NCBI GenBank assembly: GCA_033901515.1
Contig: GCA_033901515.1_4984.1
DNA length: 43,029 nt
Origin: Escherichia coli
Lineage (GTDB): Bacteria; Pseudomonadota; Gammaproteobacteria; Enterobacterales; Enterobacteriaceae
Reading direction: 5' to 3' (one strand)
The position numbers and the translations under genes are program-made. The notes under the pieces are model-generated. The model ran no database searches, was not told the origin of the DNA, and saw nothing but the letters and a program-made list of their open reading frames with translations. Below are positions 6,325-42,056 of this stretch, piece by piece; position 1 is the stretch's first letter; the number at the start of each line of letters is the position of its first letter.

Positions 6325-6626
6325 TAGACAATTCCTTCTAGTAAGTCCTCAGAGTCTGAATCACTAATCTTGTTTAAAATCTCTTTCTTACGCGCCTCTC
6401 TGCGCGCCGCTAGTTCGTCATCAAATTCGTCGCGAAGGTCCTGCATCTCCTCGGAATCTGCATCCGCGGTGATATCATTATCCTTCAAGAACTTAGCAAT
6501 GACTGATTTATCTGCGGCGGGGAGCGGCACCTCGTCTTTTTTGGACTGCTTGATTTCTTCAATCAAGGCCTCAGTGAACATGCGGTGCAGCTCCGAGAGG
6601 CGACTGCGTTTAGCCGCCCCTGCCAT
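6324..6626 (-). CDS. Terminase small subunit (DNA maturase A)
   Basis: Tool ORF starts at TTG 6641. I prefer ATG 6624-6626 (RBS GGGGGA, overlaps tail-fiber stop as TAATG), giving about 100 aa with an acidic C-terminus. Position as T7 gp18. Confidence 0.6.
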   Translation of the reverse strand: MAGAAKRSRLSELHRMFTEALIEEIKQSKKDEVPLPAADKSVIAKFLKDNDITADADSEEMQDLRDEFDDELAARREARKKEILNKISDSDSEDLLEGIV

Positions 6627-8950
6627 TATATAGTCCCCCAAGCTTGTCTGTATACAGCGTAATGCAACGCACTATTTAGTAGGGATGTATAGTCCCCCGC
6701 TACGAACGCCTGACTAGCCTCATCCCACTTACGTACCACAGAGTAAGATGCAGCAACGCTGTGAACTTTATAGTAAGCACCTCCTACTAAAATAAACTCC
6801 CCAGCACTTAGTCCGGACGATCCCAATGCTATAACCGTCTCGTTTGCAACTATGCTGTTATATAGAGAGTAGGCTGGACCCCAACCGCTATTGGATGGAA
6901 GGGTCCCTTCCCCGCGTACGAAATTATCCTCCCCTACTGTAGCGGAGTACATGCAGTATGGCGCCTCTGCCTTAAACCTATAGAACCGGGTATTGCCACT
7001 GGATGGGTACCCCCTAGGCGTAGTATTGTATGGGATGCCGTTTGTTTGCACTCCCCGATAATATTGGCGCTCCATATAAGAGTAAACACAGCCATTTGAG
7101 GTCTTAGGCACATACAGGAAGCACCTACCGATATTCTCGTGTGTGTTCCTGCCTATATGTACATAAATCATCCCCCCGGTAGTCGCAATAGAATCTATAC
7201 AGTTACTGAACATGTTTGAGTCAATGTTGCAGTAACCGACAGCGTTCTTCATCCGTACACCTTGGCTTGAGGTCGAGGACGCCCCAATAAATGTATTAGA
7301 TTTAACGTTGACTTGATACGCAGCTGTGTTTATACGGTTTAAGAATACCCCCGAGTTTGAAAACATTTCGAACCTGCAGCCTACTACGTCTGCGTTACCG
7401 CAAGACTCTAGAAACACCCCCACGGATACGTTGCGAGCCACTACTCCGCTGATTACTACACTATTCGCATAGCCTTGAGTAGTGGATGAGCCCTCATTCC
7501 CGAAGATATCTATAGCATTGTCCGTAATATTCTGTAGGATACAATCTGATATGACTGCACCATCTGGACGCTCACACTGTATTCCTATGTACCCAGTGTT
7601 AGTCACTACACAACCACGCACTGTCAGATTAGAGCACCCATAGGTGCCTGCACCTGCCCGCCTAAAGTAGAGGCCCCCGGAAGGACTACTAAGTACGCGC
7701 ACGCCTTCACACACCACGTTAGTGGAGTCGAGTATATTAACGCACGTAATACCAGTACCAGCATTCTGTGCAACGTTACCGTCGAAGGTTATATTTGAGA
7801 TTGTGACAGAATCCGCACTGCCGTCCCAGTTGGTCAATATAGCCCCAGAAGAAGTTCCGCCAACACCGCCATTCAGGGTTATAGTCCCCCCACCGGTGAG
7901 AGTCACCCCAGAGCGTATATTTAGGGCGGACCGACCAGCAGATAGCTCACCAGCAACCGCCAAACTGTTAGAGTTTAGGGATACACGGTAATGCCCGGTG
8001 GCTAGCACCGTAGTAGGACCTGAACCTCTAACAGCATTAATATGTGCAGCATCCAGGGCAGCCTGCAAAGCCATACGCCAATCCCCGGTACTATCCGCAT
8101 AGGCTTCTGGATAGATGAATGGTACTCCACCTAAGTAGTTAAATCCATTATCCGAACTTAGCAGCCCTAAAATACTTGCAACTGCACCTGTGTCAACATC
8201 GGTATCTACACCAATAGTCATATCTACTAAGGTGCCTGCTGGTACAGTTTCTGCGAACGTCACTGTGCCGTTACGGATACTATAAGAATAGCCCGCGGTC
8301 TGAGTTACTCCATTTAACCTAATCTTAGCCTTAGTAAATGGTACTCCTGGGGTAATGGTGTTCGTGTCAGCTGGCACTACAGTCCACCACGGGAAGCTAT
8401 TAGTGTTAGCATTGAAGAACGTCTGCTCTAGGTTGGTAGTGCGTATATCCAGAGCGTCATCTGCAGCTTTGCGAGCAGCTGCCTCTGCGTCAATACGCGC
8501 GTCCAGGCGAGCATCCCCGGCATCAACATACTGCTTATTAGCAGCGTCGCGTGCATCCACAGGGTCACCCAGGTTAGTGATGCGGTAACGGTGCATGTTA
8601 ATATCGCCATAGAAACCCTCGATAGAGCGCCCTTCAACCAGCTCTTGAGCCAGGTGCAGGAACTGCGTATTCTGGGTATCTACGTTACCTTCAATGAACG
8701 GGGCACCACTAGCAAATTCAATGTAGAGGTACTCTCGTGCAGTCTTACGAATAAGAAGCACCACTGTCTCTGCAGACAGTGGGGAGTTCAGACGAATGTT
8801 GGTGGAGCTGGTCCAAGTGAAGGCTGTAGTCTCAGAACCATCTAAGTAAACGTGAATATAAGATTTATCCAGGTACTCGATATCACACTGGATATCCCGA
8901 GTACCTGTAGGCTTTACCGACTCTTGCCAGCTGTATGCCATATTAATCAT
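6626..8950 (-). CDS. Tail fiber / tailspike with T7 gp17-like N-terminal anchor and beta-helix-like body
   Basis: 774 aa; N-terminus (DIEYLDKSYIHVYLDG ... HRYRITNLGDPVDARDAANKQYVD) resembles the T7 gp17 N-terminal tail-attachment domain from memory; remainder is Gly/Ser/Thr/Asn-rich repeats (NITFDGNVAQNAG ...). Confidence 0.75.
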   Translation of the reverse strand: MINMAYSWQESVKPTGTRDIQCDIEYLDKSYIHVYLDGSETTAFTWTSSTNIRLNSPLSAETVVLLIRKTAREYLYIEFASGAPFIEGNVDTQNTQFLHLAQELVEGRSIEGFYGDINMHRYRITNLGDPVDARDAANKQYVDAGDARLDARIDAEAAARKAADDALDIRTTNLEQTFFNANTNSFPWWTVVPADTNTITPGVPFTKAKIRLNGVTQTAGYSYSIRNGTVTFAETVPAGTLVDMTIGVDTDVDTGAVASILGLLSSDNGFNYLGGVPFIYPEAYADSTGDWRMALQAALDAAHINAVRGSGPTTVLATGHYRVSLNSNSLAVAGELSAGRSALNIRSGVTLTGGGTITLNGGVGGTSSGAILTNWDGSADSVTISNITFDGNVAQNAGTGITCVNILDSTNVVCEGVRVLSSPSGGLYFRRAGAGTYGCSNLTVRGCVVTNTGYIGIQCERPDGAVISDCILQNITDNAIDIFGNEGSSTTQGYANSVVISGVVARNVSVGVFLESCGNADVVGCRFEMFSNSGVFLNRINTAAYQVNVKSNTFIGASSTSSQGVRMKNAVGYCNIDSNMFSNCIDSIATTGGMIYVHIGRNTHENIGRCFLYVPKTSNGCVYSYMERQYYRGVQTNGIPYNTTPRGYPSSGNTRFYRFKAEAPYCMYSATVGEDNFVRGEGTLPSNSGWGPAYSLYNSIVANETVIALGSSGLSAGEFILVGGAYYKVHSVAASYSVVRKWDEASQAFVAGDYTSLLNSALHYAVYRQAWGTI

Positions 8951-18361: not shown

Positions 18362-18922
18362 TTAAATCATAAAACGAGCACGACGAATCCGACGTGCGAA
18401 TCTGGTCTTGCTGGTGCTGTACTTCTGGTTACGCAGATGCTCTCGCAACACCAGGGACCTGTACCGCTCCGCCTCTGCAGCGTAGTTGGCGTAGTTGCCG
18501 TCACTGCCAAGGTCATTCAGGTACACCTGTGCAGCAGTGTAGTTTGCAATCCACATGGCGGCGTGCTCCGGAAGATCCTCAAAGTTGAGGTCCAGTACCA
18601 CCTTAATCTTAACGGGGGAATCAAAGTACTCATCCTGCTCAACCAGGTTGTAAAGATTTCCGTCACGTACGCCGTACTTATTGTCTGAACACGCATCGTA
18701 CACAGCCAATTGGTTCCACGGAATCTTAATAAAACCATCAGCAGTAGGGGTAACCTCTCGCTCAACTACGTTGAACCAATAGCCCGTACTAAGCAGTCCT
18801 CGGCGATTGCGCGCGAGCGCAGAACGTGCTAACCCCGCACTAGGGTTTGAAGTGTTGATATCCATAACGCGAGACTCCCCCAAGGCTTCCAGCGTCAAAT
18901 TAATGGCGTCTAACTCTCTCAT
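18362..18922 (-). CDS. Tail tubular protein A (gp11-like)
   Basis: Tool ORF starts at 19039 and would run through the terminator. I prefer ATG 18920-18922 (RBS GAGGA), giving 186 aa starting MRELDAINLTLEALGESRVMDI, similar to the T7 gp11 N-terminus. Confidence 0.7.
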   Translation of the reverse strand: MRELDAINLTLEALGESRVMDINTSNPSAGLARSALARNRRGLLSTGYWFNVVEREVTPTADGFIKIPWNQLAVYDACSDNKYGVRDGNLYNLVEQDEYFDSPVKIKVVLDLNFEDLPEHAAMWIANYTAAQVYLNDLGSDGNYANYAAEAERYRSLVLREHLRNQKYSTSKTRFARRIRRARFMI

Positions 18923-18966
18923 ATTTGTTCCTCTATTAAAGACCCCTAGGACCCTTAAGACAGGGA

Positions 18967-19003
18967 CAAAAAAAGCCCCCGGCACCCGAAGGCACCAGGG
19001 GCG
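18967..19003 (-). terminator. Rho-independent terminator downstream of the capsid region (T-phi-like position)
   Basis: Minus-strand RNA GCCCCUGGUGCC-UUCG-GGUGCCGGGGGC followed by UUUUUUU (plus A-run 18968-18974); about 12-bp stem with G-U wobbles and UUCG tetraloop. Confidence 0.7.
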
Positions 19004-19007
19004 CATA

Positions 19008-19205
19008 TTACTCTTTAGTTTCTGTACCTGCTGCTGCATCAGCTACTGCATCAACAGCTTTGCGGGTACGCTTAGTAGCTTTACGGCCAGATTCTACCGA
19101 ACCTACTTGAATGTGCTTCGCTACCTCAGAGGCGGCTTTTACCGCCTCACGTTGAGCAGCGTTGGCCTGGAGAGTCTCCAGACCGAACACGGCGATCACT
19201 GCCAT
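19008..19205 (-). CDS. Small hypothetical protein (65 aa) between capsid gene and terminator
   Basis: ATG 19203-19205 with RBS GGAGG; Ala/Lys-rich. Confidence 0.5.
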   Translation of the reverse strand: MAVIAVFGLETLQANAAQREAVKAASEVAKHIQVGSVESGRKATKRTRKAVDAVADAAAGTETKE

Positions 19206-19216
19206 TTAACCTCCAA

Positions 19217-20236
19217 TCAGACTTTAGTGGTGAAGGTGAACTTAGTCACTGCCGCTGTATCTGGACGACGCAGGCCGATGTTGTACATCGCGTAGCAGTC
19301 CAGAACGTTGTTGAACTCGCGCTGGTCATCCCAGATACGAGAAGTGAACGGCTTAGCCTCTACCGTCACCAGGGTCTTGGACTTGCTGAAAGTTACCATG
19401 CGGCACTTCGCATCATCAGCGGTAACGGTGTAAGCCGAACCCAGCGGGTGCGTACCAGCTTCGGTCGGGAACTCAGTGCACTCTACTACCGGCACACCAT
19501 TCATCTTCACAACTCGGCGATTCTTATAGCCATCGTCGTTAGTTGCGCCGAACTCAATATTCAACAGCTTCGGATGTTCCAGCAGGCGCGAGTAGGTATC
19601 AACGTCCACCAGAGTAATCATATCCATCAGCGGAGTCTTACGCTTAATGAGCTCATCAATACCGGCCTTGTGTGCCAGGTTGATGTTCATTGCGTTAGCT
19701 TCCATCTCCGCCTGGGTCAGCTGTTTATCCGGCGTACTGCCTGCTACCAGGATAGAGGCCCCGACTTCGATACCGTCGTTGAAGGCAGGTTTCAGGTGCG
19801 CAGGTGCAACCCAGGAACGACCCTTGATGAGCTGAATCAGGTGCGCCTGGTCGAACGTCTCCGCGAACTCAGAACCGTTGTTCTGACCCATCTCAGAGAG
19901 GAAGTCCGGACCTGTCCAGTCGTCTTGATAATCGATTGGGTTACGGATGTACAGCACGGTATCCACCACGATAATCATCTTATCGTTACGGACCGGGGTG
20001 CTGTCCAGCGCCTCACCAGAACGACGACCCTTCACCGCAGAGGTATTCAGGCGATCAATACGGTAGGTGTTAGAGCCGCTGATAGAACGCTGGCTGGATA
20101 GGCCCAGGAACAGTGCCTGATACTGGAAGCGGGTATCCACCTCATTCTGGTACACTTCCAGGTGAATATCGACGTCAGACGCCGCGCCACCCCAATGCGG
20201 ACGAGTGTCACCAGCTTTGTAAATAGTATCTGCCAT
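19217..20236 (-). CDS. Major capsid protein (gp10-like)
   Basis: 339 aa (T7 gp10A is 345 aa); RBS AAGGAAAG; lies between scaffold and terminator as in T7. Confidence 0.8.
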   Translation of the reverse strand: MADTIYKAGDTRPHWGGAASDVDIHLEVYQNEVDTRFQYQALFLGLSSQRSISGSNTYRIDRLNTSAVKGRRSGEALDSTPVRNDKMIIVVDTVLYIRNPIDYQDDWTGPDFLSEMGQNNGSEFAETFDQAHLIQLIKGRSWVAPAHLKPAFNDGIEVGASILVAGSTPDKQLTQAEMEANAMNINLAHKAGIDELIKRKTPLMDMITLVDVDTYSRLLEHPKLLNIEFGATNDDGYKNRRVVKMNGVPVVECTEFPTEAGTHPLGSAYTVTADDAKCRMVTFSKSKTLVTVEAKPFTSRIWDDQREFNNVLDCYAMYNIGLRRPDTAAVTKFTFTTKV

Positions 20237-20260
20237 ATATTACTTTCCTTTTAAATGATA

Positions 20261-21133
20261 TTAAAGACCTACGCGTTTACCAGCTTCGCGGCGTGCGAGT
20301 AAATCATGATAACGTTGACTAAACTGCTTGGATTCCAGGCTTCGGTTCCCAGCTTCCTGGCGCAGCTTAGCGTATTCTACTTTGAAGTCCGCAGCGGACA
20401 ATGCGTTGTTACCAGGGACCCCACGTACCAATGGGTTTGTGGTCTTAATAAGACCCATATCGCGGCAGTAACCTGCCACCAACTCTGCTGCCTGTTTAAG
20501 CTCACCAGAATCAGCCAGGACTCGTGCAGCCTTACGCAGGGGTTCTGGGGCCTTGGAATTAAACAGCTGCGCTGCTACCTCCCAATTCTCCTTACCGCCT
20601 ACCAAGTCATACGCTTCCTGTACAGCCTTAGTAGCCTGGCCCACCTGGTCTTCAAGGTACGCCTTAGCTAGCAGCTCTGCATATGCAGCATGCTCACCGA
20701 AGCGCTCTTTGATGAAGGCCGTATCGATTAGGTTAGGATCCTGATACTCCAGGGCCTTACCTAGTGCCCGCACCATATCCGAGTCAGTTAACCCAGAGAC
20801 TTGCTTCAACATGGCTACACCGGCATCAATTGTCGGGTTGCCTGTTTGGGCCAGCTCCTGGGGCTGCTCTTTGGTGCTATCGCCACCCTTGTCATTAAGG
20901 GCCGCTTTTAGGGCTTCGATATCCAGAGGAATCTGCGCTGGGGCTGCTGGTGGAACTACTGCAGATGCAGGGGAATCTGTGCCCTGTTGCTGCTGCGTAG
21001 AGATCTGTGCATCCTGCACGCCCTGATTATTGGGGACGTTCAGAGGCGCACCTAGGCCCGGAATCTTAGGGCCTCCTTGGTTCTCTACTTGGGTAGTTGT
21101 TACGTTAGTTTGAGTGGTTTCTACACCGTCCAT
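20261..21133 (-). CDS. Scaffolding protein (gp9-like)
   Basis: 290 aa; acidic, Gln/Ala-rich, low complexity; between portal and capsid. Confidence 0.65.
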   Translation of the reverse strand: MDGVETTQTNVTTTQVENQGGPKIPGLGAPLNVPNNQGVQDAQISTQQQQGTDSPASAVVPPAAPAQIPLDIEALKAALNDKGGDSTKEQPQELAQTGNPTIDAGVAMLKQVSGLTDSDMVRALGKALEYQDPNLIDTAFIKERFGEHAAYAELLAKAYLEDQVGQATKAVQEAYDLVGGKENWEVAAQLFNSKAPEPLRKAARVLADSGELKQAAELVAGYCRDMGLIKTTNPLVRGVPGNNALSAADFKVEYAKLRQEAGNRSLESKQFSQRYHDLLARREAGKRVGL

Positions 21134-21147
21134 TTATACCTCTGTTG

Positions 21148-22743
21148 TTAGCCCGGTAACAGGCCTAGTTGTTGTCCTGCTACGGTAGGATCCGCTGCCT
21201 GGAGATCTTGTACCTGAGACTGTGCTTGTGCTGCTGATGCCGCCGCTGCATTATCTTGAACTTGCTGCTTCTCTTGCAGTTGCTCTTCTGTGAGCATGAA
21301 CGGTCCACTTACAATACCGTATGCATCCAAGTACCAATCTACGCATGCATCCTCATTAAAGCGGGGAGTAAGCTGTTTGAGCACAGGAATAGCCAGCTGC
21401 ATAGCCTGGGTAGCTTCTAGCAGTTTATCTGCTGCTGCTGCTTTAGCTAGTGCTGCAGTACCTACCATCACGTTGATATCCACTACACCCTCGGTGAGGT
21501 ACACCTTGAACTTAGGATATGCCACGATAGTATACAGGTACGCGAGCTTACGCAGCCAGGAGTTGCTGAGGATGCTGAATCCACCACCCATAGCGTACTC
21601 TGCCTCTTTAGCATTCTGACGAATCTCATAAGCAGTTACACGCTCACCCTGTCGAGCATTGCCGGTGTACATAAACGCACGAGCCAGTTTCTGCTCAAGC
21701 ACCTGAATGTCGCTAGCAATCCACTGAATCTTTTGAGCTGCACCACCCTCGTAAGCTGTTACAGGGGACTTGGTGTTACCATTACTACCACCACCACCAA
21801 CCTGTACGGCCTCACCAGTCTCGGCTTGAGAGAACTCGTCCACATCCAGTCCAGAACTAGCATCGACCATAGGGATAAGGCGTGAAGCCTCAATCTCGTA
21901 GTTGGTCAACGCTTCGGTCAGCACAGACAGTCGCGCAAAGTCGCCCGCATAGTCTTCCACCAGACCGCGTCCGTAGTGTTCACCGTTAACCAGGTTCCAC
22001 ACCAATACGTTATACGGAAGTTCCAGCTCAGGGTAGGTGCTGCTCTCGCCTAGGCGACGGCCATCAACTTCTTGATACACCTCATAGCTTACTGCTTCTT
22101 CTCCATTTGGAAGGTGCTTAATCTTACGACAAGCGGCAGTGTAGATATCAATGTCGCTGTATGGGTCTCGACCATTGTAGTGTGCTTTTTGAATGTCTTC
22201 TGGGAGGTCCTGGATGCTGGCGCGCTCTTTGATAATGAGTCGCAGCACGTTCCCGCTACCATCCCTTCGAACGGTAAAGTTACGGACCGAGTAGATAATA
22301 GACTTCCCGGTTCTTTCATCGATGTACTCCAATGCGTTCCCGGTGATAAGCAGCAACTTCACAGCTTGAAGCTTAGCGGCATACCCATCCTTCTCGAATA
22401 CCTTCTGAGAGGCAGTATTCTCTACCTCGGATAAACGGGATTCTGCAGTGCTAGAACTTCCTAGGCTACTAATAAAGTTGTCAAGGGCTGCACTCTTAGA
22501 GAACCGGAAGAAGCTAGTGCCTTGTGGGAACAACGCCCCTACAATTTTAGTCGCTGCAGTATTGACTAGCTGAGCACCTGTACTCTGATAGTCTCGACTA
22601 AGCTGCATGCGTCGCCCATCAGTGTAAAGCTCTCGGGTAAAGATTGTAGGTAGCGTCCACTCAGCAAATTTCTCTGACGCATCCAGTACGCCAGCATCCT
22701 GATCCCCCAGGAACAGCTCTGCTAATGTCTTTTTATAGTCCAA
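21148..22743 (-). CDS. Portal / head-tail connector protein (gp8-like)
   Basis: 531 aa (T7 gp8 is 536 aa); apparent TTG start at 22741-22743 with strong RBS AAGGAGGAAG; no in-frame ATG in the first ~60 codons. Confidence 0.8.
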   Translation of the reverse strand: MDYKKTLAELFLGDQDAGVLDASEKFAEWTLPTIFTRELYTDGRRMQLSRDYQSTGAQLVNTAATKIVGALFPQGTSFFRFSKSAALDNFISSLGSSSTAESRLSEVENTASQKVFEKDGYAAKLQAVKLLLITGNALEYIDERTGKSIIYSVRNFTVRRDGSGNVLRLIIKERASIQDLPEDIQKAHYNGRDPYSDIDIYTAACRKIKHLPNGEEAVSYEVYQEVDGRRLGESSTYPELELPYNVLVWNLVNGEHYGRGLVEDYAGDFARLSVLTEALTNYEIEASRLIPMVDASSGLDVDEFSQAETGEAVQVGGGGSNGNTKSPVTAYEGGAAQKIQWIASDIQVLEQKLARAFMYTGNARQGERVTAYEIRQNAKEAEYAMGGGFSILSNSWLRKLAYLYTIVAYPKFKVYLTEGVVDINVMVGTAALAKAAAADKLLEATQAMQLAIPVLKQLTPRFNEDACVDWYLDAYGIVSGPFMLTEEQLQEKQQVQDNAAAASAAQAQSQVQDLQAADPTVAGQQLGLLPG

Positions 22744-22752
22744 GCTTCCTCC

Positions 22753-23016
22753 TTACAGACCCAGGGGATTGCTCTGCCCTGCCTGTCGCCGTTTCTTCTG
22801 CTCAGACGTAATTGCATCTGCAGATGCAGAGGCCGCGCCGGATGGGTCTACCTCTGCAATATTATCAGCTGCGCTGTTAGCCCCTAAGGCTGCCTGCTGT
22901 TTTGCTGCTTCAGCCTGCTGCTCAGCCATGCGCTGCTGTTGCTCTAATCCTTCATTATCAGTAAGGCCGAGCATATCCGTGGCCTTACCTAATAGTTTAC
23001 CTAATCCACCACTCAT
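22753..23016 (-). CDS. Hypothetical protein (87 aa, Gln/Ala-rich)
   Basis: ATG 23014-23016, RBS GAGG; overlaps upstream stop as ATGA. Confidence 0.5.
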   Translation of the reverse strand: MSGGLGKLLGKATDMLGLTDNEGLEQQQRMAEQQAEAAKQQAALGANSAADNIAEVDPSGAASASADAITSEQKKRRQAGQSNPLGL

Positions 23017-23453
23017 TTTGACCTCACTAAATGATAAGTTGTTTTATACGTGTTCGGAGATACCCCACGACTTATAGCTATACGTCCAGCTCGCAGGCAC
23101 TCAGCCAGTATGTGCAGCCCCTTCATAACTACAGTCATTGCTCCACTATTCCCCGGTTTCAGTACGAAGAAGTCTGTGAACAATACGGGTTCTGCATAAT
23201 GGCAGTCCTTTACAGCTTCTGGGTAGTAACTGACAGCACCAACTAAACCACCTTGGGAGTCATAGACTCCTAGTATATGCTGTTTACCTAGTATACTTTC
23301 CAGTACTCTACAGTAGTGTTGCTCCAGGGACAGGCCCCGACTAATGCCGTGGCCTAGTTCGTGCAGTTGCTTCACTGCGTCTGTAATATCGTCAGACTTA
23401 TGCAGAACCTTGAGAGTATAGTCGGAAGTTTTACTAGTGTGTTTTAACTTCAT
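23013..23453 (-). CDS. Hypothetical protein (146 aa), first gene after the RNAP block
   Basis: I prefer ATG 23451-23453 (MKLKHTSK...) preceded by GGAGTAGGA; the tool start at 23516 would overlap the upstream gene by 40 nt. Confidence 0.5.
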   Translation of the reverse strand: MKLKHTSKTSDYTLKVLHKSDDITDAVKQLHELGHGISRGLSLEQHYCRVLESILGKQHILGVYDSQGGLVGAVSYYPEAVKDCHYAEPVLFTDFFVLKPGNSGAMTVVMKGLHILAECLRAGRIAISRGVSPNTYKTTYHLVRSK

Positions 23454-23475
23454 TCCTACTCCTGTAACATTAAAT
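23454..23475 (-). promoter_or_regulatory. Conserved 17-bp motif also present in the terminal repeat; candidate phage promoter or end-related site
   Basis: Plus 23454-23470 tcctactcctgtaacat is identical to plus 16-32 and 42968-42984; minus strand reads ATGTTACAGGAGTAGGA immediately before the ATG at 23453. Confidence 0.4.
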
Positions 23476-23476
23476 T

Positions 23477-23815
23477 TTAGTAGGGTGCCCAAACCGGTAT
23501 ACCGGCCTTCCTGCACAGTTCAACCATACCGGCGGTGCCTCTTCCTCCAGGAAAGGCGACACAGTATTCTGGAAAGGCTAGGGATATCATAGCGGCGTTC
23601 CTGCGCATACCTGCAGATTTACCTTGTGCATCCCACAGGGCAGGCATACGCAGAACAAAAATACCAGATTCCAAGGCCCACCTATCTGCCAGTGCGTCAG
23701 CTCCCCTGGCATTCCCGTGTATCACTACAGATGGTTTGTTGGGTAGCATATCCATTGCGGTCTTTAGCGCTAAGTAGTCTGTGTAATCGCGCCCGCCTGT
23801 TACTAGTACTCGCAT
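23477..23815 (-). CDS. SLOG/LOG-like Rossmann-fold nucleotide-binding protein (DUF2493-like)
   Basis: 112 aa; VLVTGGRDYTDY, GNARGADALADRWA and FPGGRGTAGMVE resemble SLOG superfamily signatures (LOG PGGxGTxxE-like). From memory, not verified by search. Confidence 0.45.
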   Translation of the reverse strand: MRVLVTGGRDYTDYLALKTAMDMLPNKPSVVIHGNARGADALADRWALESGIFVLRMPALWDAQGKSAGMRRNAAMISLAFPEYCVAFPGGRGTAGMVELCRKAGIPVWAPY

Positions 23816-23824
23816 ACAATACTC

Positions 23825-26293
23825 TCAGCAGAAGAAGAACGGAGATTCTAGCACTTGCCGGATGTCCAGAGTACCAACCGCAGGCATATCCAGGTCCGTC
23901 AGGTCTGCCCCCGCTGCAGCAGCAGCTCTAGTAATATCTCCCAGAAGGTCGTGCTCCTCATACAGCTTCACAAACTGTTCGCGGATGTGTCGGTGCAGAG
24001 CATCAACATCGGATGCATGAGTAGCCAAGGAGTCGTGAATAGGCACAATATCAAGTCCCTCCGCCGCGCAGAGTACCATCATCAAGTGCGTACTATCCAG
24101 ACTGTGCACAAAGTTCGGAGCGATCCCAGAGGCTGCCTTGCGCTTATTACACGTTTTAAAATCACGGTTATGCACCAGTACAGCGGATAGGTTCATACAG
24201 TCAATACGGACACGTACCTCTTCCCTCTGAGAGTACCGGTTCATCACCAGCCCGCCCAGCGGGGTCTTCCACTGCAGGTGCTGGCTAGCAGGTACGCGCC
24301 TAGCTAGATTCTGCAGATACCCCATAGCTGCGGCAGCTGCCGGGTTAGCTTCCTCAATAGCGCTACGCATTCTAGGGGCAAGGTAGCAGGATAAGTTCCA
24401 GAGACTGTGCGTGTCTGTTCCTTCATACCCCTCTTCACAGGCCCCTGCAAAGATGTAGTCGCTGCAGCTGCGCACCGTGGCGCTGTAGAAGTAGGTCATG
24501 CTAGGACGCTTGGTCATGCTTCGCGTGATTTCGTTCTCTCTCCAGTATGTGCTCTGGATAACGAAATCCTCTTTGTCCAGGTCCAGTATCACCTTCTCGT
24601 CCGTACGGCGCTTCACGTCCATATACAGGTCCGCTTTCTTGTCGTTACCCTCCCAGTACAGGTTAGTCAGGCGCCCGCCTACAGGGTCTCTCAGGAGCGC
24701 TGAGAGGTGCTGACCACCTGAGTTTGTAGCATCCATAGCAACTGGGATTCGGCTAATATACTCTTCTGGGCATCCAGAACGTACCGCATTAACCAAGTCA
24801 ATAGCGGCTGCCAGGAAGCACCAAGGGCTGTCGGCGGAGGTAAAAGCAGGGCAATCAAAAGGAGAATCCGCGAGCTGCTCAATCTCTGCAAAGTTTGCAT
24901 CAACCCAAGCTGCACGGTCTTCGAATAGGGTTTTGTCATAACCAAAGCAGGTAGCGACGTGCACTTTAAGCCAGAATAACCCCCTCTCTCCCAGAGGTTT
25001 ACCTCGTCCGAATTCAAGAAGTGCCTTCTGCAAATCAGAACCTTGTGGGTGCAGAGAGGACTTGAAGTACAGCCGGTACCGCCAATCCACACAGGTTGGG
25101 AAGTACAAGGCTTTCTCATCTTTGAATTCCTCTGCCATCTCTAGCGTGGTCAATAGGCTACGTAGTTGCGACACACGTTTACGGTCGGCGCTGTACCATA
25201 AGGACATACGCGTCTTCCACTCTCCGAAGCGGTCGAGTTCCTCCTCGGTGTAATTCTCTTTTGGTACACCATCTAAGTACCACTCAGGTTTCGGCTCTGG
25301 CACTGAGCGCGGCATACCTACACCAATACCTAAGGCCCGTGCTTCTTGTACCAGTTCCAGTACTCGCTTATTAATGCGATAAGGAGTTTCCTGCGCCTTA
25401 TTAAGTGCCTTCTTGATACCGTCCGCAGACTTAAATGCTTCCGCTACTTCACGCAGTCTGGCGCGGTCAATGTGCGAGTTGTGGTACGTCCCACGGTTAT
25501 CGATTGGGGTGAGGTATCCACCATCCCACAGTGTAGTATGCGACACCGGCGGTACCAGCATCGGAGGCTTCATAGTTACAGTATCAGCAGATTCCACTAA
25601 CTGCTGAAATGCTTCCATAACATTATCTGCGGGATAGAGCATACTCAAGTTCCCGCTACCAGTCTTCCACTGGAACAGCCCTGTCTCAAACACTGCGGAA
25701 CACAGCAGACGTCCCACAGAAATATTCTGAGCGTTGGTCCAAGGCTCATGCCCATAGTGCACGTTCTCAGCGCTGGCGCGGAGCGTACGCAGAATGTGCG
25801 TAGGCGACTTAGTACGGCGCTCAGTGAGGTATTCATATACCCGGTCCATATACGCTGGGGCAACATTACGTAGCTGCAATGCCAGCAGCTCTGATTGTAC
25901 GTTCCTACCCAGTGCAGACATTACCGCCTGAGCAGTCTGGCGGCGACTAGCGGACTCGCCAGGGGCAACACTGAACGCCTCAAACATTGTGCACAGGCTC
26001 AGGGTAGTCAGGACATCCAAGGGAACTAAGCGCAAGAACCGGCGGTACTTTCCGCCAATACCTGGGGCTTTGGTGTTTCGCATTTCATCAATAGCTGTAG
26101 AGGCCACGTCATACGCAGAGGTGAGCATGCGCTGAGTCATTGGCAGGTTCATAATCCCGCCGTTCTGCAGAGCATCAGTAATTAACTTACGAGCACGCTC
26201 AATACCTCGAATTTTATAGGTCTCTTCAAGCTCCAGCTGGCGCTGCACCAGTGCTTCCTCTGGTACTACAACCGTATTCAGGGCGCTAATCAT
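23825..26293 (-). CDS. Single-subunit DNA-dependent RNA polymerase (T7 RNAP family)
   Basis: 822 aa; PVAMDATNSGGQHLSALLRD aligns with T7 RNAP [20 protein letters not shown] (catalytic Asp); IVPIHDSLATH aligns with T7 HDSFGT (second catalytic Asp); RBS AAGGAG. Confidence 0.9.
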   Translation of the reverse strand: MISALNTVVVPEEALVQRQLELEETYKIRGIERARKLITDALQNGGIMNLPMTQRMLTSAYDVASTAIDEMRNTKAPGIGGKYRRFLRLVPLDVLTTLSLCTMFEAFSVAPGESASRRQTAQAVMSALGRNVQSELLALQLRNVAPAYMDRVYEYLTERRTKSPTHILRTLRASAENVHYGHEPWTNAQNISVGRLLCSAVFETGLFQWKTGSGNLSMLYPADNVMEAFQQLVESADTVTMKPPMLVPPVSHTTLWDGGYLTPIDNRGTYHNSHIDRARLREVAEAFKSADGIKKALNKAQETPYRINKRVLELVQEARALGIGVGMPRSVPEPKPEWYLDGVPKENYTEEELDRFGEWKTRMSLWYSADRKRVSQLRSLLTTLEMAEEFKDEKALYFPTCVDWRYRLYFKSSLHPQGSDLQKALLEFGRGKPLGERGLFWLKVHVATCFGYDKTLFEDRAAWVDANFAEIEQLADSPFDCPAFTSADSPWCFLAAAIDLVNAVRSGCPEEYISRIPVAMDATNSGGQHLSALLRDPVGGRLTNLYWEGNDKKADLYMDVKRRTDEKVILDLDKEDFVIQSTYWRENEITRSMTKRPSMTYFYSATVRSCSDYIFAGACEEGYEGTDTHSLWNLSCYLAPRMRSAIEEANPAAAAAMGYLQNLARRVPASQHLQWKTPLGGLVMNRYSQREEVRVRIDCMNLSAVLVHNRDFKTCNKRKAASGIAPNFVHSLDSTHLMMVLCAAEGLDIVPIHDSLATHASDVDALHRHIREQFVKLYEEHDLLGDITRAAAAAGADLTDLDMPAVGTLDIRQVLESPFFFC

Positions 26294-26434
26294 AGGCGCT
26301 TAGTCTCCTTGGTTATGTCCGATATTTCTAACTACTGGTTTCGACTTACCCAGAGATTATACATCGCCAGGTAATCATTAGCGGAGCTTTCGTCGCCCCG
26401 CTCGATTGCTTCTTGCCACATCTTGTGGCACCAC

Positions 26435-26671
26435 TCACTCGGTGTCAATACACTCCCCCTTGTGCTGCTCATACAGCTCTAAGTACTTGTCAGATTTAGC
26501 AATATCCTGCTCTAGCTTATCCTTGTTACCAGCACGGAGTCTGTACTTGAGCCGATTTCCCAGACAGTACCCGTAGAATTGCTCTTGTGTCATGCTGCGG
26601 GCAATCACAGAAATAGCTTCCAAGTCCGGAAAGAATTGGTAGTGTTTAGGCGAATTTACTGCGTCACTCAT
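26435..26671 (-). CDS. DUF3310-like small phage protein
   Basis: 78 aa; SPKHY ... CLGNRLKYRLRAG matches my recollection of the DUF3310 pattern. Confidence 0.5.
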   Translation of the reverse strand: MSDAVNSPKHYQFFPDLEAISVIARSMTQEQFYGYCLGNRLKYRLRAGNKDKLEQDIAKSDKYLELYEQHKGECIDTE

Positions 26672-27090
26672 TTAATAGTCTCCCGCGCTTTACGTCGAGC
26701 TCTGGCCTTGCGTGCCTTGAGCTTCTGTGCCTGTGCCTGTTCTTCCGGCGTCTTATATGTATAGTATAGCATATCCGTCGGTTCCCGGTCTAGGTAGTCG
26801 GCAACCCTACGCAGAGATTCAGCAATAGCCCTAGAAGATTGCATGCTACCAACAATCCAGCGCCCAGCGGCAGATGCCACCTTGCCCTCCCCTCCATTGC
26901 ACGAGCGATGAAGAGCACCCCGAATACGCCCAGTAATATGACAGTGGTCAACGACAACAGAATCACCAGTCACCCCCTTGATCGTGAAGTCCAAAGGTTT
27001 ACCACAAAGGAGGCATATACCTCCCTGGTCTTTGGCAAGTTTAATAGCCACAGAACGAATCTGTGCCCGTGTAATCTTTCTCAAGGTCAC
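26668..27090 (-). CDS. Endonuclease VII (T4 gp49-like junction-resolving enzyme)
   Basis: 140 aa; CLLCGKPL ... DHCHITGRIRGALHRSCNGGEG parallels T4 endo VII CLICQREL ... DHDHELNG..VRGLLCNLCNAAEG; apparent GTG start. Confidence 0.75.
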   Translation of the reverse strand: MTLRKITRAQIRSVAIKLAKDQGGICLLCGKPLDFTIKGVTGDSVVVDHCHITGRIRGALHRSCNGGEGKVASAAGRWIVGSMQSSRAIAESLRRVADYLDREPTDMLYYTYKTPEEQAQAQKLKARKARARRKARETIK

Positions 27091-27284
27091 AGTTCAATCT
27101 CCCCAACTAAATCCAACATAGCATTGTCGTGAATGAGAGAATCCAAATGCTCAACTGTTCTTCGATGTGTTTTGGGTGCTCGTTCACGCAACGCGTCCAG
27201 AATAGTTTCCAGTTCATCATGTTTCCCCTCGTAGTATAACTCAATCGCCCGCAGGCTCATTTCCTTCGCAGACATCTTCGCCAT
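27087..27284 (-). CDS. Hypothetical protein (about 65 aa)
   Basis: I prefer ATG 27282-27284 (MAKMSAKEM...); overlaps the 3' end of the exonuclease gene by about 44 nt. Confidence 0.35.
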   Translation of the reverse strand: MAKMSAKEMSLRAIELYYEGKHDELETILDALRERAPKTHRRTVEHLDSLIHDNAMLDLVGEIEL

Positions 27285-28209
27285 TGTCTGGGTGCTCCTG
27301 TATCCACTGTATGTGCTGTTTATGGTACTCGTGCAGCGACTGCACCCAGTCACGTAGACTGGGAGTAGTCAACAGTGACATCAGATACTGATAGGCAGAA
27401 TCTGATTGGGAGCGCCGCAGGAACAGGCATTCAGCCTCTGCGAGTACATCTTGGTTGTTTCTAGCATAAGCCGCTACAACGAACTCTGCGGCGTCTTGCT
27501 CTGAGGTAATAGGGTAGATAGCATCAAAGGCTGTTCGCTTGCCACAGAGCTTCCCATCAAGCAAGGTGATACCTTTGACGTTATCGGCATCGTCTCCAGC
27601 TAGCATCTGCCACCAGAAGAACTTCAACCCATGCGCTCGTACTGGCATGGCCTGGGTGTCGTCCCACTCAATCCAGCCGAAGGGATCCTTCAGTGCAGGC
27701 CACACTGTACCGGTTGGAATATCAAATCTAGCCATGGGGCTGAGCCAGGAATCTTTATCCTGTGACATCAGAATACCACGTTCTCCGAAAGTGTATGAAT
27801 CCATTACGAACAAGTCATCCGCCTCGAAGAAGTCACTACTAACTACCTGGATACCTTGCTCATAGTACTGGTCTGGATTCTCAATTAAGTGCCGCTTCAA
27901 TGGCGCCTTTAGAGGTAGCTCCTGCCGATTAATGCGCTGCCCCTGGTAGGGCTTAGCCGTAGGGAGGTGCCATCGCAAGCACTTGGCGCATCCCGTAGGT
28001 GTTAGATACGCCACTGCTTCTGAGCAACCAACCAGGAACATATCCTCAAGCACTAGTTGATAGAAGCGGCGTATTGCGGTATCCAGACGTTTCACTGTAG
28101 CAGCGGCTTTGTACACGCAAAAGTCCGCGTCGTACAACAGAATCTTCCCAGCGTTCTGCGGAGCTAACTGCTCTGGGAGCTGGGACAAGTCAACCCCGTT
28201 GATAATCAT
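27241..28209 (-). CDS. 5'-3' exonuclease (T7 gp6 / FEN-like)
   Basis: 322 aa; KILLYDADFCVYKA vs T7 gp6 GILVMDGDWLVFQA; SQDKD vs SCDKD; GDDADN vs GDITDG; RBS GGGGG. Confidence 0.7.
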   Translation of the reverse strand: MIINGVDLSQLPEQLAPQNAGKILLYDADFCVYKAAATVKRLDTAIRRFYQLVLEDMFLVGCSEAVAYLTPTGCAKCLRWHLPTAKPYQGQRINRQELPLKAPLKRHLIENPDQYYEQGIQVVSSDFFEADDLFVMDSYTFGERGILMSQDKDSWLSPMARFDIPTGTVWPALKDPFGWIEWDDTQAMPVRAHGLKFFWWQMLAGDDADNVKGITLLDGKLCGKRTAFDAIYPITSEQDAAEFVVAAYARNNQDVLAEAECLFLRRSQSDSAYQYLMSLLTTPSLRDWVQSLHEYHKQHIQWIQEHPDNGEDVCEGNEPAGD

Positions 28210-30667: not shown

Positions 30668-31096
30668 TTAGGCCTCCTTAATAATTTGACTGACGCGAGA
30701 TTGTACTACACCGTATTTCGCAGCAAGCACGTACTGATTAGCGTGTTTAGAACGAGGAACATACTCCCGGCGAATCTGCTCTACAGTAGACTTGGAAATC
30801 TTATGAGCTTCTCGGCCCCTATCTACCTTATCTTGCATGTTGTCTGCCCTGCTGCCCACCAGAAGATGCTCGGGATTAATACAACGGGGATTGTCACATG
30901 AGTGTCTAATCACCTGCCCGTCTATATCCGCATAGGTTATACCGTGGTGGCGGACGTAAACCACTCGATGATATAGGCGCATCTTTCCGTCACGTTTAAC
31001 TAACGCATACCCTCCTTTTAGAAGGCTCCGGCTTTTGCCGTGGTCTATACATTCTGACACTGCATGCCTCTCTTGTGTTGTTCCTACTCGTATCAC
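30668..31096 (-). CDS. HNH endonuclease (free-standing, homing-type)
   Basis: GGYALVKRDGKMRLYHRVVYVRHHG ... VIRHSCDNPRCINPEHLLVGSRADN is an HNH_3-like pattern, with a C-terminal HTH-like segment. Start uncertain: GTG 31096 or GTG 31060 (RBS GAGAGG). Confidence 0.75.
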   Translation of the reverse strand: MIRVGTTQERHAVSECIDHGKSRSLLKGGYALVKRDGKMRLYHRVVYVRHHGITYADIDGQVIRHSCDNPRCINPEHLLVGSRADNMQDKVDRGREAHKISKSTVEQIRREYVPRSKHANQYVLAAKYGVVQSRVSQIIKEA

Positions 31097-33893: not shown

Positions 33894-34229
33894 TCACTTG
33901 ATTGGTGGAATATCAATAGACTCTAGCAGCGGCTGCTGCAGTAGGTAAGTGTTATACTCCTGTATCGCCTGCACCGCCAAGTCCCGCAGTCGCAACGCTT
34001 TGTTTACGTCCCAATCAGTACGAGAGAACACTGCACTGGGGGATACTAGGGAGAATGCCTCTGGGTTAAAGTGAAAGGTAGGTTCCTTTGATTCGACCAG
34101 CTGTATCATCGCCTCGCTTGCGTTACGAACGGTGTATACACCACCCCTATCCACACCGGTACGGTAAGCTGTCTCACGGGCTATGTCAGCATCTCGCCGT
34201 ACTTTATCACCAATTTTAAAATTACACAT
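33894..34229 (-). CDS. Hypothetical protein (about 111 aa) with N-terminal K(I/V)GDKV ... YTV module
   Basis: I prefer ATG 34227-34229 (MCNFKIGDKV..., RBS GAGGGG); shares an N-terminal module with the 36480..36968 protein. Confidence 0.5.
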   Translation of the reverse strand: MCNFKIGDKVRRDADIARETAYRTGVDRGGVYTVRNASEAMIQLVESKEPTFHFNPEAFSLVSPSAVFSRTDWDVNKALRLRDLAVQAIQEYNTYLLQQPLLESIDIPPIK

Positions 34230-35502
34230 TAATCTGCCCCTCATTAAATCGGCATCTACCTGGGTCGAATGCTACCTCGAATTGCAGTAGCGACTCCTTA
34301 CCTGATAGCGCCATCTTGTTCTTAGGTGTACTGATACCGCGGATGTTTTGCATGTGCGGCTGCTCGTTCCTGTCCAAGCACCCCATCATAATTGCCAAGT
34401 CCAAAGCACCTTGTACGCCAATCTTACTCTGCTTCATTGCCGTGAGCGGCGGAAACAGTAGGTTGTAACCTTCGAGTGAAAGCTGCATAGTACCGATAAC
34501 TGCACAATCGTTCTCGCACCCCAGGATACGTAGCTCCTGCCACTTCGCCTCTAGATTCTGGTGTTCACTCTCCATAGTACCGCCACGGATATTAGCCACC
34601 ATGTCTATGATTATTACCGCCGGGCGCATCTCTTCCATGAGCGTAGAGATTTGAGCCATAGTAAGAGAGTGTGCCGCCTTGATACGAATACGGTCGGCCC
34701 TGCCTACTTTCTCCAGATAGGCTGGCACAAACTCTTGCCTACTGTGCCTGTCCTTAATCTCAGCCAGAGTCCAATGCAGCGCCGCTTGATATACCCTCGG
34801 CACTGTACGCGTCGCCGGGCCTTCGTTAACCAACCACAGAATCGGGCGGTCCCCGTATACTTCAGGTTGTTGCTGCATCTGCTTAGCAAAGTCCACGGCA
34901 ATAGCAGCGAGTAGACTAGTTTTACCAGAATCAACAGGGGCAGCAACGGCGATGCAATCACCGCCGCGAAGCCCACGAATGCTATTAGACAGTTGCTCAA
35001 ACACACCCAGTTTAAGTCCGCCACTTTCATCAGTCGCGGCAAGTATTTCATCAACACTTCCGCTCTCCCATTCCAGTAGCGAATCATGAACAGCAGCACC
35101 ATCACCGTACTTGCGCTGGAGGTGTTTCATCTCCAGCAGATAATCAACCTCCTCGCCGTCTTGGTAGCGCTGCGTTAGCGCCGCCACCTCCCCGCTGTAT
35201 GCTAACTCATTCAGTGTCTGAACAATCCCCACCACAGAATCCTGTGGCACGGCTTGTACTCCCCGCATAAGCTCGTCCATAATCACCCGCTCTTCACGGG
35301 ATAGATGTCCAGCACGGAGGTTGAGCATACTCTGCATCGCATCCCACTGCACCTCCTGGTGCTCCGGGTACGTATTCCAGTACAACCCCACCCAGTCCAG
35401 TAGGTTCGAGGTGTCCGGCGCTAGCATGGACTTGGGTATCTGCTCTCGCAGTCGGTTCCAGACCTTCTGCGTGCACATCGCCTTAACTACTATTAGGTCC
35501 AA
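34222..35502 (-). CDS. DnaB-like replicative DNA helicase
   Basis: 426 aa; Walker A AAPVDSGKTSLL; apparent TTG start with RBS GGAGG. Confidence 0.75.
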   Translation of the reverse strand: MDLIVVKAMCTQKVWNRLREQIPKSMLAPDTSNLLDWVGLYWNTYPEHQEVQWDAMQSMLNLRAGHLSREERVIMDELMRGVQAVPQDSVVGIVQTLNELAYSGEVAALTQRYQDGEEVDYLLEMKHLQRKYGDGAAVHDSLLEWESGSVDEILAATDESGGLKLGVFEQLSNSIRGLRGGDCIAVAAPVDSGKTSLLAAIAVDFAKQMQQQPEVYGDRPILWLVNEGPATRTVPRVYQAALHWTLAEIKDRHSRQEFVPAYLEKVGRADRIRIKAAHSLTMAQISTLMEEMRPAVIIIDMVANIRGGTMESEHQNLEAKWQELRILGCENDCAVIGTMQLSLEGYNLLFPPLTAMKQSKIGVQGALDLAIMMGCLDRNEQPHMQNIRGISTPKNKMALSGKESLLQFEVAFDPGRCRFNEGQINV

Positions 35503-36284
35503 GTTAATGCCTCCAGTATCTCTTTGATTTCTGCGTCCTTAGGATCCGCAGCGAAGTGGTGTTCTCGGCACTGCATGAACGGGCGCAGTGCTCGGCGTGC
35601 TGCTGCTACCCCAGCATGCCCCGCTGGGTCGTTGTCCAACATTAGAATCACTTCAGGGCGATTCTGAATCAGCCAGGCCCTTAACTGCGTGGGCAAGCGT
35701 GTACCCAGCATAGCTATAGCCTGCACGTTCAACGCACTGTAGCTCGTAACTGCGTGCTGTATCTTCAGGGCTGAGAGTAAGTCCTCTGTGAGCACGACCT
35801 TTAGAGGAGCGCCCGCAGCTACACCCGGTGCTACGGCAGGTCCCACGGCAGCGAAGGGTATTGGCTGGCCGTACATTACCCACTTCGGTTGCTGTCGGGC
35901 ATGAACAGCACGGCCCAGTACAGCACCCCCGACACGGAATATTATCCGCTGTTTCTCTTTGCTCCATTCTGCATCCCCCACCATTTCAGGCATGATTCCT
36001 TTTGAAGCAAGGAATCCGTAAATAAAACTCTGCGTTTCCGCAGGCGCTTGGCTAATGCAAATTGCATCTGCAGGTGCAGAGGGCTGCACCCTCGGCTCTT
36101 CCTGTAACTGTATGCGCTGGTACTGCTTGCGCTCCTTGCCTACCTGTTTGCAGCGGTGGCAATAGTATTCCCAGGCATCCGGGTTATTGTAGAGCACCCC
36201 GGCGGCGTCCCTGCCGCAGCACCGAAAGCGTGCCCTCTGCCCCACGGCCAGGCGCTTGCACGCTCTAAGCCAGGGCTGGTCCAT
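35493..36284 (-). CDS. DNA primase (zinc-ribbon plus TOPRIM)
   Basis: 263 aa; N-terminal Cys cluster FRCCGRD ... YYCHRCKQ; TOPRIM-like VVLTEDLLSALK and ILMLDNDPAGHAG. Confidence 0.7.
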   Translation of the reverse strand: MDQPWLRACKRLAVGQRARFRCCGRDAAGVLYNNPDAWEYYCHRCKQVGKERKQYQRIQLQEEPRVQPSAPADAICISQAPAETQSFIYGFLASKGIMPEMVGDAEWSKEKQRIIFRVGGAVLGRAVHARQQPKWVMYGQPIPFAAVGPAVAPGVAAGAPLKVVLTEDLLSALKIQHAVTSYSALNVQAIAMLGTRLPTQLRAWLIQNRPEVILMLDNDPAGHAGVAAARRALRPFMQCREHHFAADPKDAEIKEILEALTWT

Positions 36285-36463
36285 TACTTAATCTCAATGC
36301 TATTAGCGTATGCTATGTCATCCCATAAGATTTCTTCTTCGGGCACATCCACCATCCGCCCATCTTCCAGACGGTATATGTCGCCATCCTATACCTTTAT
36401 AGCCCAAAAACTGCGTGATCCCCAAGTGAACGGAATACCAACCACAATGCTCTTAGGTGGCAT
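36284..36463 (-). pseudogene. Short ORF interrupted by a single in-frame TAG (possible pseudogene, recoding or error)
   Basis: Minus-strand frame MPPKSIVVGIPFTWGSRSFWAIKV-TAG-DGDIYRLEDGRMVDVPEEEILWDDIAYANSIEIK, terminating as TAATG on the primase start; TAG is plus cta at 36389-36391. Confidence 0.3.
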
Positions 36464-36479
36464 TTTGTACGTGATAATT

Positions 36480-36968
36480 TTATGCATTTGCTTTCTCCTT
36501 ACGTTTGATATCCATAGCCATGCGACGAAGATCGTGTGCCAGTTGCAGGGCTGCGTCGGGACTCATATTAATACCGATCTCCTGCTCTGCCCGGGGGCTG
36601 TTCTTTCTAGGAACTATTCCGATGTAGAGTAGGTTCTCATCAGTAAAACTACATCTATCTAGGACTAACCGCTGGTCATTGCCACGGTTGCGCTTGGAGT
36701 TCATGTAGGCTACGCTATCCGGAACTGGCGGCAGCTCGTCGTCCGGCTCTTGGTACAGCTCAAAGTCTTCAGCACGCCAGGGGGTGGGGTCACAATAACG
36801 CTGCATACCGTCAAGCTGCAACCAGTCACCACTAGCACTAATGTTTGTTACAGTATAATAATCCTTGACGCCTTGGTTATGTCGCAAGAGTGTCATAAAC
36901 CCGGTACCTGCTGCGCCTACTGCTACTACTTTATCACCAACTTTAAACTTAGATTTAAACTTAGACAT
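36480..36968 (-). CDS. Hypothetical protein (about 162 aa) with N-terminal K(I/V)GDKV ... YTV module
   Basis: I prefer ATG 36966-36968 (MSKFKSKFKVGDKVV..., RBS GGAGGG); the tool start is TTG 36974. Confidence 0.5.
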   Translation of the reverse strand: MSKFKSKFKVGDKVVAVGAAGTGFMTLLRHNQGVKDYYTVTNISASGDWLQLDGMQRYCDPTPWRAEDFELYQEPDDELPPVPDSVAYMNSKRNRGNDQRLVLDRCSFTDENLLYIGIVPRKNSPRAEQEIGINMSPDAALQLAHDLRRMAMDIKRKEKANA

Positions 36969-40107: not shown

Positions 40108-40311
40108 TTAATCCTTGAATACTACGTTGCGGGCCACGAGTGTGCTATTGTCGCTGGATACTATACCGCCAACTGTGTGGCTTGACTGCAACCACCGCTG
40201 CAGGGGATTGCTATAGTGTTCAGCGTGCTCGTGCAGCGTACCATACAGCGGCACCCGGTACAGTAACCCGTTCGGGCGCTTGTACAAGTCATACTCAACT
40301 AGTTCATTCAT
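40108..40311 (-). CDS. Hypothetical early protein (67 aa)
   Basis: ATG 40309-40311; packed between neighbours. Confidence 0.4.
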   Translation of the reverse strand: MNELVEYDLYKRPNGLLYRVPLYGTLHEHAEHYSNPLQRWLQSSHTVGGIVSSDNSTLVARNVVFKD

Positions 40312-40487
40312 ACTACACCTCGCACATTAAAACGGTGACAGTAACCGCGCAGGGTCATACCCAGCCGCTTTGCTTGTTTCTCATAGTGCTGGCGCAGCGC
40401 TGCTTTTGCGCTGTATTCACGCGCCAGTCCGTCGATTGTTGGTTGCTGCTTACGCATCAGCAGCACCTCTGGATTCTTTCCGTACAT
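40308..40487 (-). CDS. Hypothetical early protein (about 59 aa)
   Basis: I prefer ATG 40485-40487 (RBS GAGGTGGG) over the tool GTG at 40493. Confidence 0.4.
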   Translation of the reverse strand: MYGKNPEVLLMRKQQPTIDGLAREYSAKAALRQHYEKQAKRLGMTLRGYCHRFNVRGVV

Positions 40488-40506
40488 ACCCACCTCAATA
40501 CTTACC

Positions 40507-41840: not shown

Positions 41841-42056
41841 TTAGCGTCCGAACTGCCCAGCAGTATACCAGCCTTGTGGCGCTCTGCTACTACCTTTTGT
41901 TTTGGTTTTACCGCGTACATTCGTGCTGAATGTAGCGGATTGCTTCATCCGCATATACCCAGCACGATTCAGCGCATCCCGGCGTTTTCTCAATTCAGGA
42001 CCGGATAACTTCTCCAGCCCAGCAAATTGTTGCGCTAACTTCTCACGATATTTCAT
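41841..42056 (-). CDS. First early gene, small basic protein (about 71 aa)
   Basis: I prefer ATG 42054-42056 with strong RBS GAGGAGG (the tool start is TTG 42071, inside the RBS); Arg/Lys-rich. Confidence 0.45.
   Translation of the reverse strand: MKYREKLAQQFAGLEKLSGPELRKRRDALNRAGYMRMKQSATFSTNVRGKTKTKGSSRAPQGWYTAGQFGR

Follow-up and report, generated by a model that had tools for sequence, protein, structure and literature searches.

The portal, DnaB-like helicase and endonuclease VII genes of a phage genome very probably begin at TTG, TTG and GTG codons, respectively, and these are ordinary Shine–Dalgarno (SD)-led starts with near-cognate initiation codons. The genome was analysed as a single stretch of 43,029 nt (the window), in which the minus strand carries all long open reading frames (ORFs) and genes. 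In the initial annotation, several core genes were proposed to use TTG or GTG as start codon, each preceded by a ribosome-binding site (RBS); this is borne out by the position of these codons, by the SD energy and by comparison with relatives.

In all three genes, the proposed codon is the 5′-most in-frame initiator and has a close in-frame stop upstream (the nearest lies at codon −4 for the portal, −13 for the helicase and −2 for endonuclease VII). Each is preceded by anti-SD pairing 4–10 nt upstream that exceeds the background. The N-termini of homologues align at the proposed codons, where some relatives have an ATG, and coding-type conservation extends from the proposed start to the next ATG (codons 2–44 in the portal, codons 2–8 in the helicase). 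Taken over these three genes and three further genes in which a TTG start gives way to a downstream ATG, comparison at the DNA level with about 60 relatives per gene backs all six start calls.

Genome context and Shine–Dalgarno strength

Judged by nucleotide similarity and gene order, the window is the genome of a Drulisvirus (KP34-like, Autographiviridae, Slopekvirinae). An 8-kb segment (positions 20000–28000) shares 92–94% identity, over 95–97% of its length, with Minorna, SFN6B and KPV811; with many Klebsiella KP34-like phages it shares ~84%. The nucleotide similarity to type members of the genus is collinear, a single-subunit RNA polymerase lies beside the structural genes, and the gene order is that of the fully annotated Minorna genome. 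Minorna (NC_048172, Drulisvirus) is an Escherichia phage and SFN6B a Shigella phage; KPV811 and fHe-Kpn01 are Klebsiella phages. In a curated list of 47 window genes, for which the start at 27284 was corrected by hand, 43 genes start with ATG, two with TTG and two with GTG.

SD strength was calculated as the energy of the anti-SD duplex over positions −18 to −3, with all TTG and GTG triplets of the coding strand as background. The resulting energies were −12.1 kcal/mol for the portal TTG, −9.3 kcal/mol for the helicase TTG and −8.5 kcal/mol for the endonuclease VII GTG. About 2% of the coding-strand TTG and GTG triplets reach −9, and 2.5–3.6% reach −8. The portal TTG has the strongest SD energy of all 583 coding-strand TTG triplets.

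The portal gene starts at TTG

The portal gene and its start are defined by the following features:

21148..22743, minus strand: portal coding sequence (CDS), 531 aa, identified by PF12236, PDB 23sg and the lengths in relatives
22741..22743, minus strand: portal TTG start codon, the first ATG, GTG or TTG after an in-frame TAA (22755..22753)
22748..22754, minus strand: portal SD AAGGAGG, with a 4-nt spacer (AAGC), overlapping the TAA stop of the upstream 87-aa gene

At this start, the minus strand reads ...ctg TAA GGA GGA AGC TTG GAC TAT AAA... The initial annotation had located the portal start at this TTG, 5 nt behind an RBS. The position holds and the spacing does not: 4 nt separate the GGAGG core from the TTG, and AAGGAGGAAG, which spans 22754..22745, ends 1 nt short of this codon. 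A 4-nt spacer is close to the lower limit of what is usual. The portal had also been described as lacking an in-frame ATG for about 60 codons, which is incorrect, as an in-frame ATG first occurs at codon 46 (22608..22606).

We compared the portal gene across 64 loci, comprising the window and 63 related viral contigs, whose 5′ regions represent 57 distinct sequences. All loci have TTG at codon 1 (57 of 57 distinct Drulisvirus sequences), and the SD region in front of it reads TAAGGGGGTAGC or TAAGGAGGAAGC in the relatives. As ATG starts strongly predominate in the window (43 of 47 genes), one could argue that Met46 of the portal (22608) and, likewise, Met9 of the helicase (35478) are the real starts, and that the upstream TTG codons and their RBSs are coincidental. 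This is highly improbable. ATG46 is present in 6 of the 57 distinct relatives; in the remaining 51, the first 100 codons contain no ATG. Neither ATG has an SD, with duplex energies of −2.8 at portal ATG46 and −3.3 at helicase ATG9. In addition, the stretches upstream of both ATGs are conserved in the manner of coding sequence and have homology to annotated N-termini in other genera, and a portal beginning at Met46 would be without the first ~45 positions of its Pfam domain.

The conservation is particularly clear in the portal. Variable columns are distributed over codon positions 1, 2 and 3 as 14/10/35 in codons 2–44 and as 15/6/46 in codons 45–100; because the two patterns are alike, codons 2–44 are coding. 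This stretch of the protein (residues 2–45) contains TLAELFLGDQDAGVLDASEK and FAEWTLPTIFTR. A tblastn search of GenBank phages with the first 173 portal residues returned 1394 records, and the matches from distant genera reach query residues 1–6. In six other genera, represented by phiKMV, phiKDA1, KF1, AS11, Clickz_B4 and Aeromonas PS, the portal has an annotated ATG within ~5 codons of the aligned TTG and carries the motif ...LF...D....E.FA.WTLPT.F, which lies upstream of window Met46. The alignment with T7 gp8 begins at residue 22 of the window portal. The profile of the T7-type portal, PF12236 (Head-tail_con), is matched with 170.7 bits (cut-off 27), residues 24–477 corresponding to profile positions 23–484 of 489.

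The length of 531 aa is also that of Minorna gp20, SFN6B gp31 and a solved Drulisvirus-type portal (PDB 23sg, 'portal gp19'). Residues 1–530 of the latter align to residues 1–530 of the window portal, which shows only that the deposited sequence begins at the TTG-equivalent codon; a literature search for Drulisvirus cryoEM found no description of the portal N-terminus. We propose that AAGGAGG, overlapping the stop of the preceding gene, would place the ribosome at TTG 22743.

The portal lies in the reading frame of the upstream 87-aa gene, with only TAA GGA GGA AGC between the two (22741–23016, minus strand). The in-frame TAA at portal codon −4 is found in nearly all Drulisvirus loci (about four lack it, with a G-run upstream) and is not found in other genera. 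The shared frame is most likely incidental.

The helicase gene starts at TTG

The start of the DnaB-like helicase gene lies within the end of the primase gene:

34222..35502, minus strand: helicase CDS, 426 aa, matching PF03796 and PF13481 and as long as Minorna gp42, for which a TTG start is annotated
35500..35502, minus strand: helicase TTG start codon, with a 10-nt overlap with the 3′ end of the primase gene (stop 35495..35493)
35510..35514, minus strand: helicase SD GGAGG, 7-nt spacer, energy −9.3

The two Pfam matches score 37.9 bits (PF03796) and 48.6 bits (PF13481) against a cut-off of 27. A helicase start at TTG 35500–35502 behind GGAGG had been claimed from the initial reading, and this was confirmed without change: the spacer is 7 nt, and the aligned codon is TTG or ATG in all 62 loci compared (TTG in 58, ATG in four). 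The four ATG loci have another upstream gene. An in-frame TAA at codon −1 in 52 of the 62 loci means that no start is possible further upstream in these. Codons 2–8 encode D-L-I-V-V-K/R-A, with the amino acids kept and the nucleotide changes mostly third-position, synonymous ones.

The ATG at codon 9 (35478) is invariant in all 62 loci, which would favour a start at this position. It is not accompanied by an RBS, however, and SD energies averaged over 24 distinct upstream contexts amount to −10.4 in front of codon 1 and to −0.5 in front of ATG9. Distant helicases align with the window helicase from residue 1; in the Vibrio phage OWB the helicase has an ATG exactly at the aligned codon, and in Fri1 and RS1pmA it starts six codons earlier. 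Initiation at TTG 35502 would therefore be expected behind GGAGG, within the final 10 nt of the primase gene, and a minor second initiation at ATG9 may occur besides it.

GTG starts of the endonuclease VII gene and, probably, the HNH endonuclease gene

One endonuclease gene of the window has a GTG start codon and a second one probably does:

26668..27090, minus strand: endonuclease VII CDS, 140 aa, matching PF02945
27088..27090, minus strand: endonuclease VII GTG start codon, overlapping as GTGA the stop (27089..27087) of the small gene upstream
27099..27104, minus strand: endonuclease VII SD-like GGGGAG, 8-nt spacer, energy −8.5
31058..31060, minus strand: probable HNH endonuclease GTG start codon (gene 30668..), with GAGAGG 6 nt upstream

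The endonuclease VII start was likewise correctly placed at GTG 27088–27090 in the initial annotation; GGGGAG lies 8 nt in front of it. At the homologous codon, most relatives have ATG and five loci have GTG. The window GTG is preceded by an in-frame TGA at codon −2, and GGGGAG is kept in relatives that have the same upstream gene. The Endonuclease_7 profile (PF02945) is matched with 46.3 bits (cut-off 23.6), residues 17–101 corresponding to profile positions 17–81, one to one from the N-terminus. The sequence GTG ACC TTG provides a second in-frame initiator, so that the gene could instead start two codons downstream, at TTG 27084..27082. We regard this as very unlikely: codon 3 is a non-initiator (CTA or CTG) in most relatives, codon 1 is an initiator (ATG or GTG) in nearly all of them, and the SD would sit 14 nt away from the TTG. 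Translation of endonuclease VII would thus be expected to start at GTG 27090, within the GTGA stop/start overlap.

The HNH endonuclease probably starts at GTG 31060, and the GTG at 31096 given by the longest ORF is less likely. The SD energy is −7.6 for GTG 31060, compared with −3.0 for GTG 31096, which has no SD. Minorna has an ATG at the codon aligned to 31060 and a TAA in the stretch upstream of it. GTG 31060 would be a fourth non-ATG start in the window and was absent from the earlier list of such starts.

Longest-ORF starts that are too long

A mechanical choice of the longest ORF gives TTG starts for the small terminase (6641), the first early gene (42071) and a 164-aa ORF (36974). In each of these, an ATG lies a short distance downstream:

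6624..6626, minus strand: small terminase ATG start, SD energy −8.4, compared with +0.4 for TTG 6641
42054..42056, minus strand: first early gene ATG start, GAGGAGG 6 nt upstream, SD energy −13.5, compared with −2.5 for TTG 42071
36966..36968, minus strand: ATG start of the 164-aa ORF, giving 162 aa, in the context GGAGGG ttgatt ATG, in which TTG 36974 falls inside the SD spacer

These three TTG 'starts' are artefacts of the longest-ORF rule, and the earlier suggestion that a nearby ATG with an RBS explains each gene better proved right. For the small terminase, ATG 6626 is conserved and has an SD, and TTG 6641 has none; the start ATG GCA GGG (MAGAAKRSRL) is kept in 78 loci with many unrelated upstream contexts, each providing its own SD. 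ATG 42056 of the first early gene is favoured over TTG 42071 by SD energy, by its conservation in 44 loci with at least three different upstream contexts, and by the Minorna annotation. Conservation and the Minorna annotation also favour ATG 36968 over TTG 36974 in the 164-aa ORF. Thus, in all three genes the ATG is conserved and the upstream context varies, in distant relatives the 'TTG' position is separated from the ATG by a stop codon, and the curated Minorna annotation uses the downstream ATG of the homologue.

Several further observations were made on gene starts and small genes. At the 5′ end of the 164-aa ORF (36942–36965, minus strand), a 12-nt tandem duplication, in which tctaagtttaaa occurs twice, gives rise to SKFK-SKFK and is absent from 16 relatives. 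Between this ORF and the primase gene (36285–36487, minus strand) lies a small gene homologous to Minorna gp46, which contains an in-frame TAG (36391..36389) where KPV811 has GAG. The TAG is either a sequencing error or a sign that this small gene is nonsense-split or decaying. In the tail-fibre gene (8939–8950, minus strand), the longest-ORF ATG 8950 directly abuts GGAG, and ATG 8941 lies 9 nt after GGAG. ATG 8941 is the start annotated in Minorna, where the codon equivalent to 8950 is ACG. Longest-ORF starts on the minus strand are also over-long at GTG 23516 (region 23013–23516), GTG 27353 (27087–27353), GTG 40493 (40308–40493) and ATG 19039 (18362–19039); the Minorna annotation and the RBS positions favour ATG 23453, 27284, 40487 and 18922, respectively.

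Initiation, expression and significance

Least probable of all is that TTG initiation does not take place and that fusion proteins are made instead, either an 87-aa protein–portal fusion by readthrough of the TAA or a primase–helicase fusion by a −1 frameshift (compare the single T7 gp4 primase-helicase): the frame that the portal has in common with the 87-aa gene across TAA GGA GGA AGC in nearly all Drulisvirus loci and the 10-nt overlap of primase and helicase would favour such fusions, but the frame arrangement is not found in other genera (in-frame stops at −5 to −37), a search for a slippery heptamer in ...GCATTAACTTGGACCTAA at the primase/helicase overlap found none, and Minorna and many relatives with other genes between primase and helicase keep the TTG, the SD and the TAA at codon −1. 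Both fusions were rejected on the grounds that these arrangements are not conserved beyond close relatives and that there is no slippery site.

UUG and GUG are decoded by the initiator tRNA, although initiation is usually less efficient than at AUG. GUG accounts for ~14% and UUG for ~3% of E. coli gene starts, and near-cognate SD-led starts often occur at stop/start overlaps. If the portal, helicase and endonuclease VII starts are SD-led in the same manner, the initiator tRNA would read the portal TTG, the helicase TTG and the endonuclease VII GTG as fMet. A weak codon that follows a strong RBS or lies in a stop/start overlap may then give a modest, coupled level of expression. Such a level would suit a portal present in 12 copies and catalytic enzymes of replication and recombination that are needed in low amounts. 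A literature search found no N-terminal protein or ribosome-profiling data on start sites for the window phage or any Drulisvirus.

A further, rather doubtful idea is that the weak TTG codon is itself selected as a built-in attenuator of expression. Two observations bear on it: the portal TTG is invariant across the genus (57 of 57), and the helicase arrangement 'SD-TAA-TTG-GAC' is common to Drulisvirus and the distant Phikmvvirus (~33% identity). We do not claim selection on TTG from its invariance. Approximately 19% of third-codon positions in the portal set are invariant, so that the invariance of one base of the portal TTG (its T) is indistinguishable from chance and not statistically meaningful. 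If the attenuator idea were true, a change from TTG to ATG should over-produce the portal or the helicase and lower phage fitness.

The starts described here imply no new biology, and their main value is in annotation quality, in that they provide the right N-termini for the portal, the helicase, endonuclease VII, the HNH endonuclease, the small terminase and several small genes. Longest-ORF calls went wrong in both directions, being too long for six or more genes and inviting truncation in two. Accurate N-termini count when the portal structure is modelled and when expression constructs are designed.

Comparison with known systems

Compared with non-AUG initiation in E. coli generally, the window has the same kind of SD-led near-cognate start and nothing distinctive. 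Similar numbers of such starts are known from KP34-like phages. According to the parts of the published reports considered here, SU503 and SU552A have two to three TTG and two to three GTG starts (PMC4411677), and fHe-Kpn01 has four TTG starts (PMC7291057). Together, these correspond to 2–4 TTG and 0–3 GTG starts per ~55 genes, compared with two and two among the 47 window genes; the same parts of the two reports neither name the TTG and GTG genes nor test the starts. The annotated gene lengths of SFN6B and fHe-Kpn01 match those of the window portal and helicase. In fHe-Kpn01, g40 measures 1596 nt and was found in virions by LC-MS/MS; the supplement lists gene lengths and detection by mass spectrometry, and no start codons or N-terminal peptides.

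The closest counterpart is Minorna, in which the portal (head-tail adaptor gp20) and the helicase (gp42) are annotated from TTG codons homologous to those of the window. The two phages share the lengths of 531 and 426 aa, the portal RBS context ctgTAAGGAGGAAGC TTG GAC TAT AAA and ~93% nucleotide identity over 8 kb. They differ in the upstream context of the helicase, with two additional small genes separating it from the primase in Minorna, and in that Minorna endonuclease VII starts with ATG, whereas that of the window starts with GTG. Because relatives are annotated in this way and papers on the genus report two to four TTG starts, the TTG and GTG starts of these genes are already known and unremarkable.

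A more distant likeness is found in the Phikmvvirus helicases of phiKMV (ORF15) and LKD16 (gp15). In both, an SD is followed by TAA TTG GAC (in AAGGAGcctagTAA TTG GAC), aligned with the window TTG. They differ from the window in an amino-acid identity of only ~33% and in the RefSeq start, which is an ATG 25 codons downstream. The 25 helicase codons skipped in this way (NC_005045 8103–8178 in phiKMV and NC_009935 8445–8520 in LKD16) are homologous to the annotated N-termini of Fri1 and OWB. On the basis of this homology, the RefSeq helicase records of phiKMV and LKD16 are probably too short by 25 codons.
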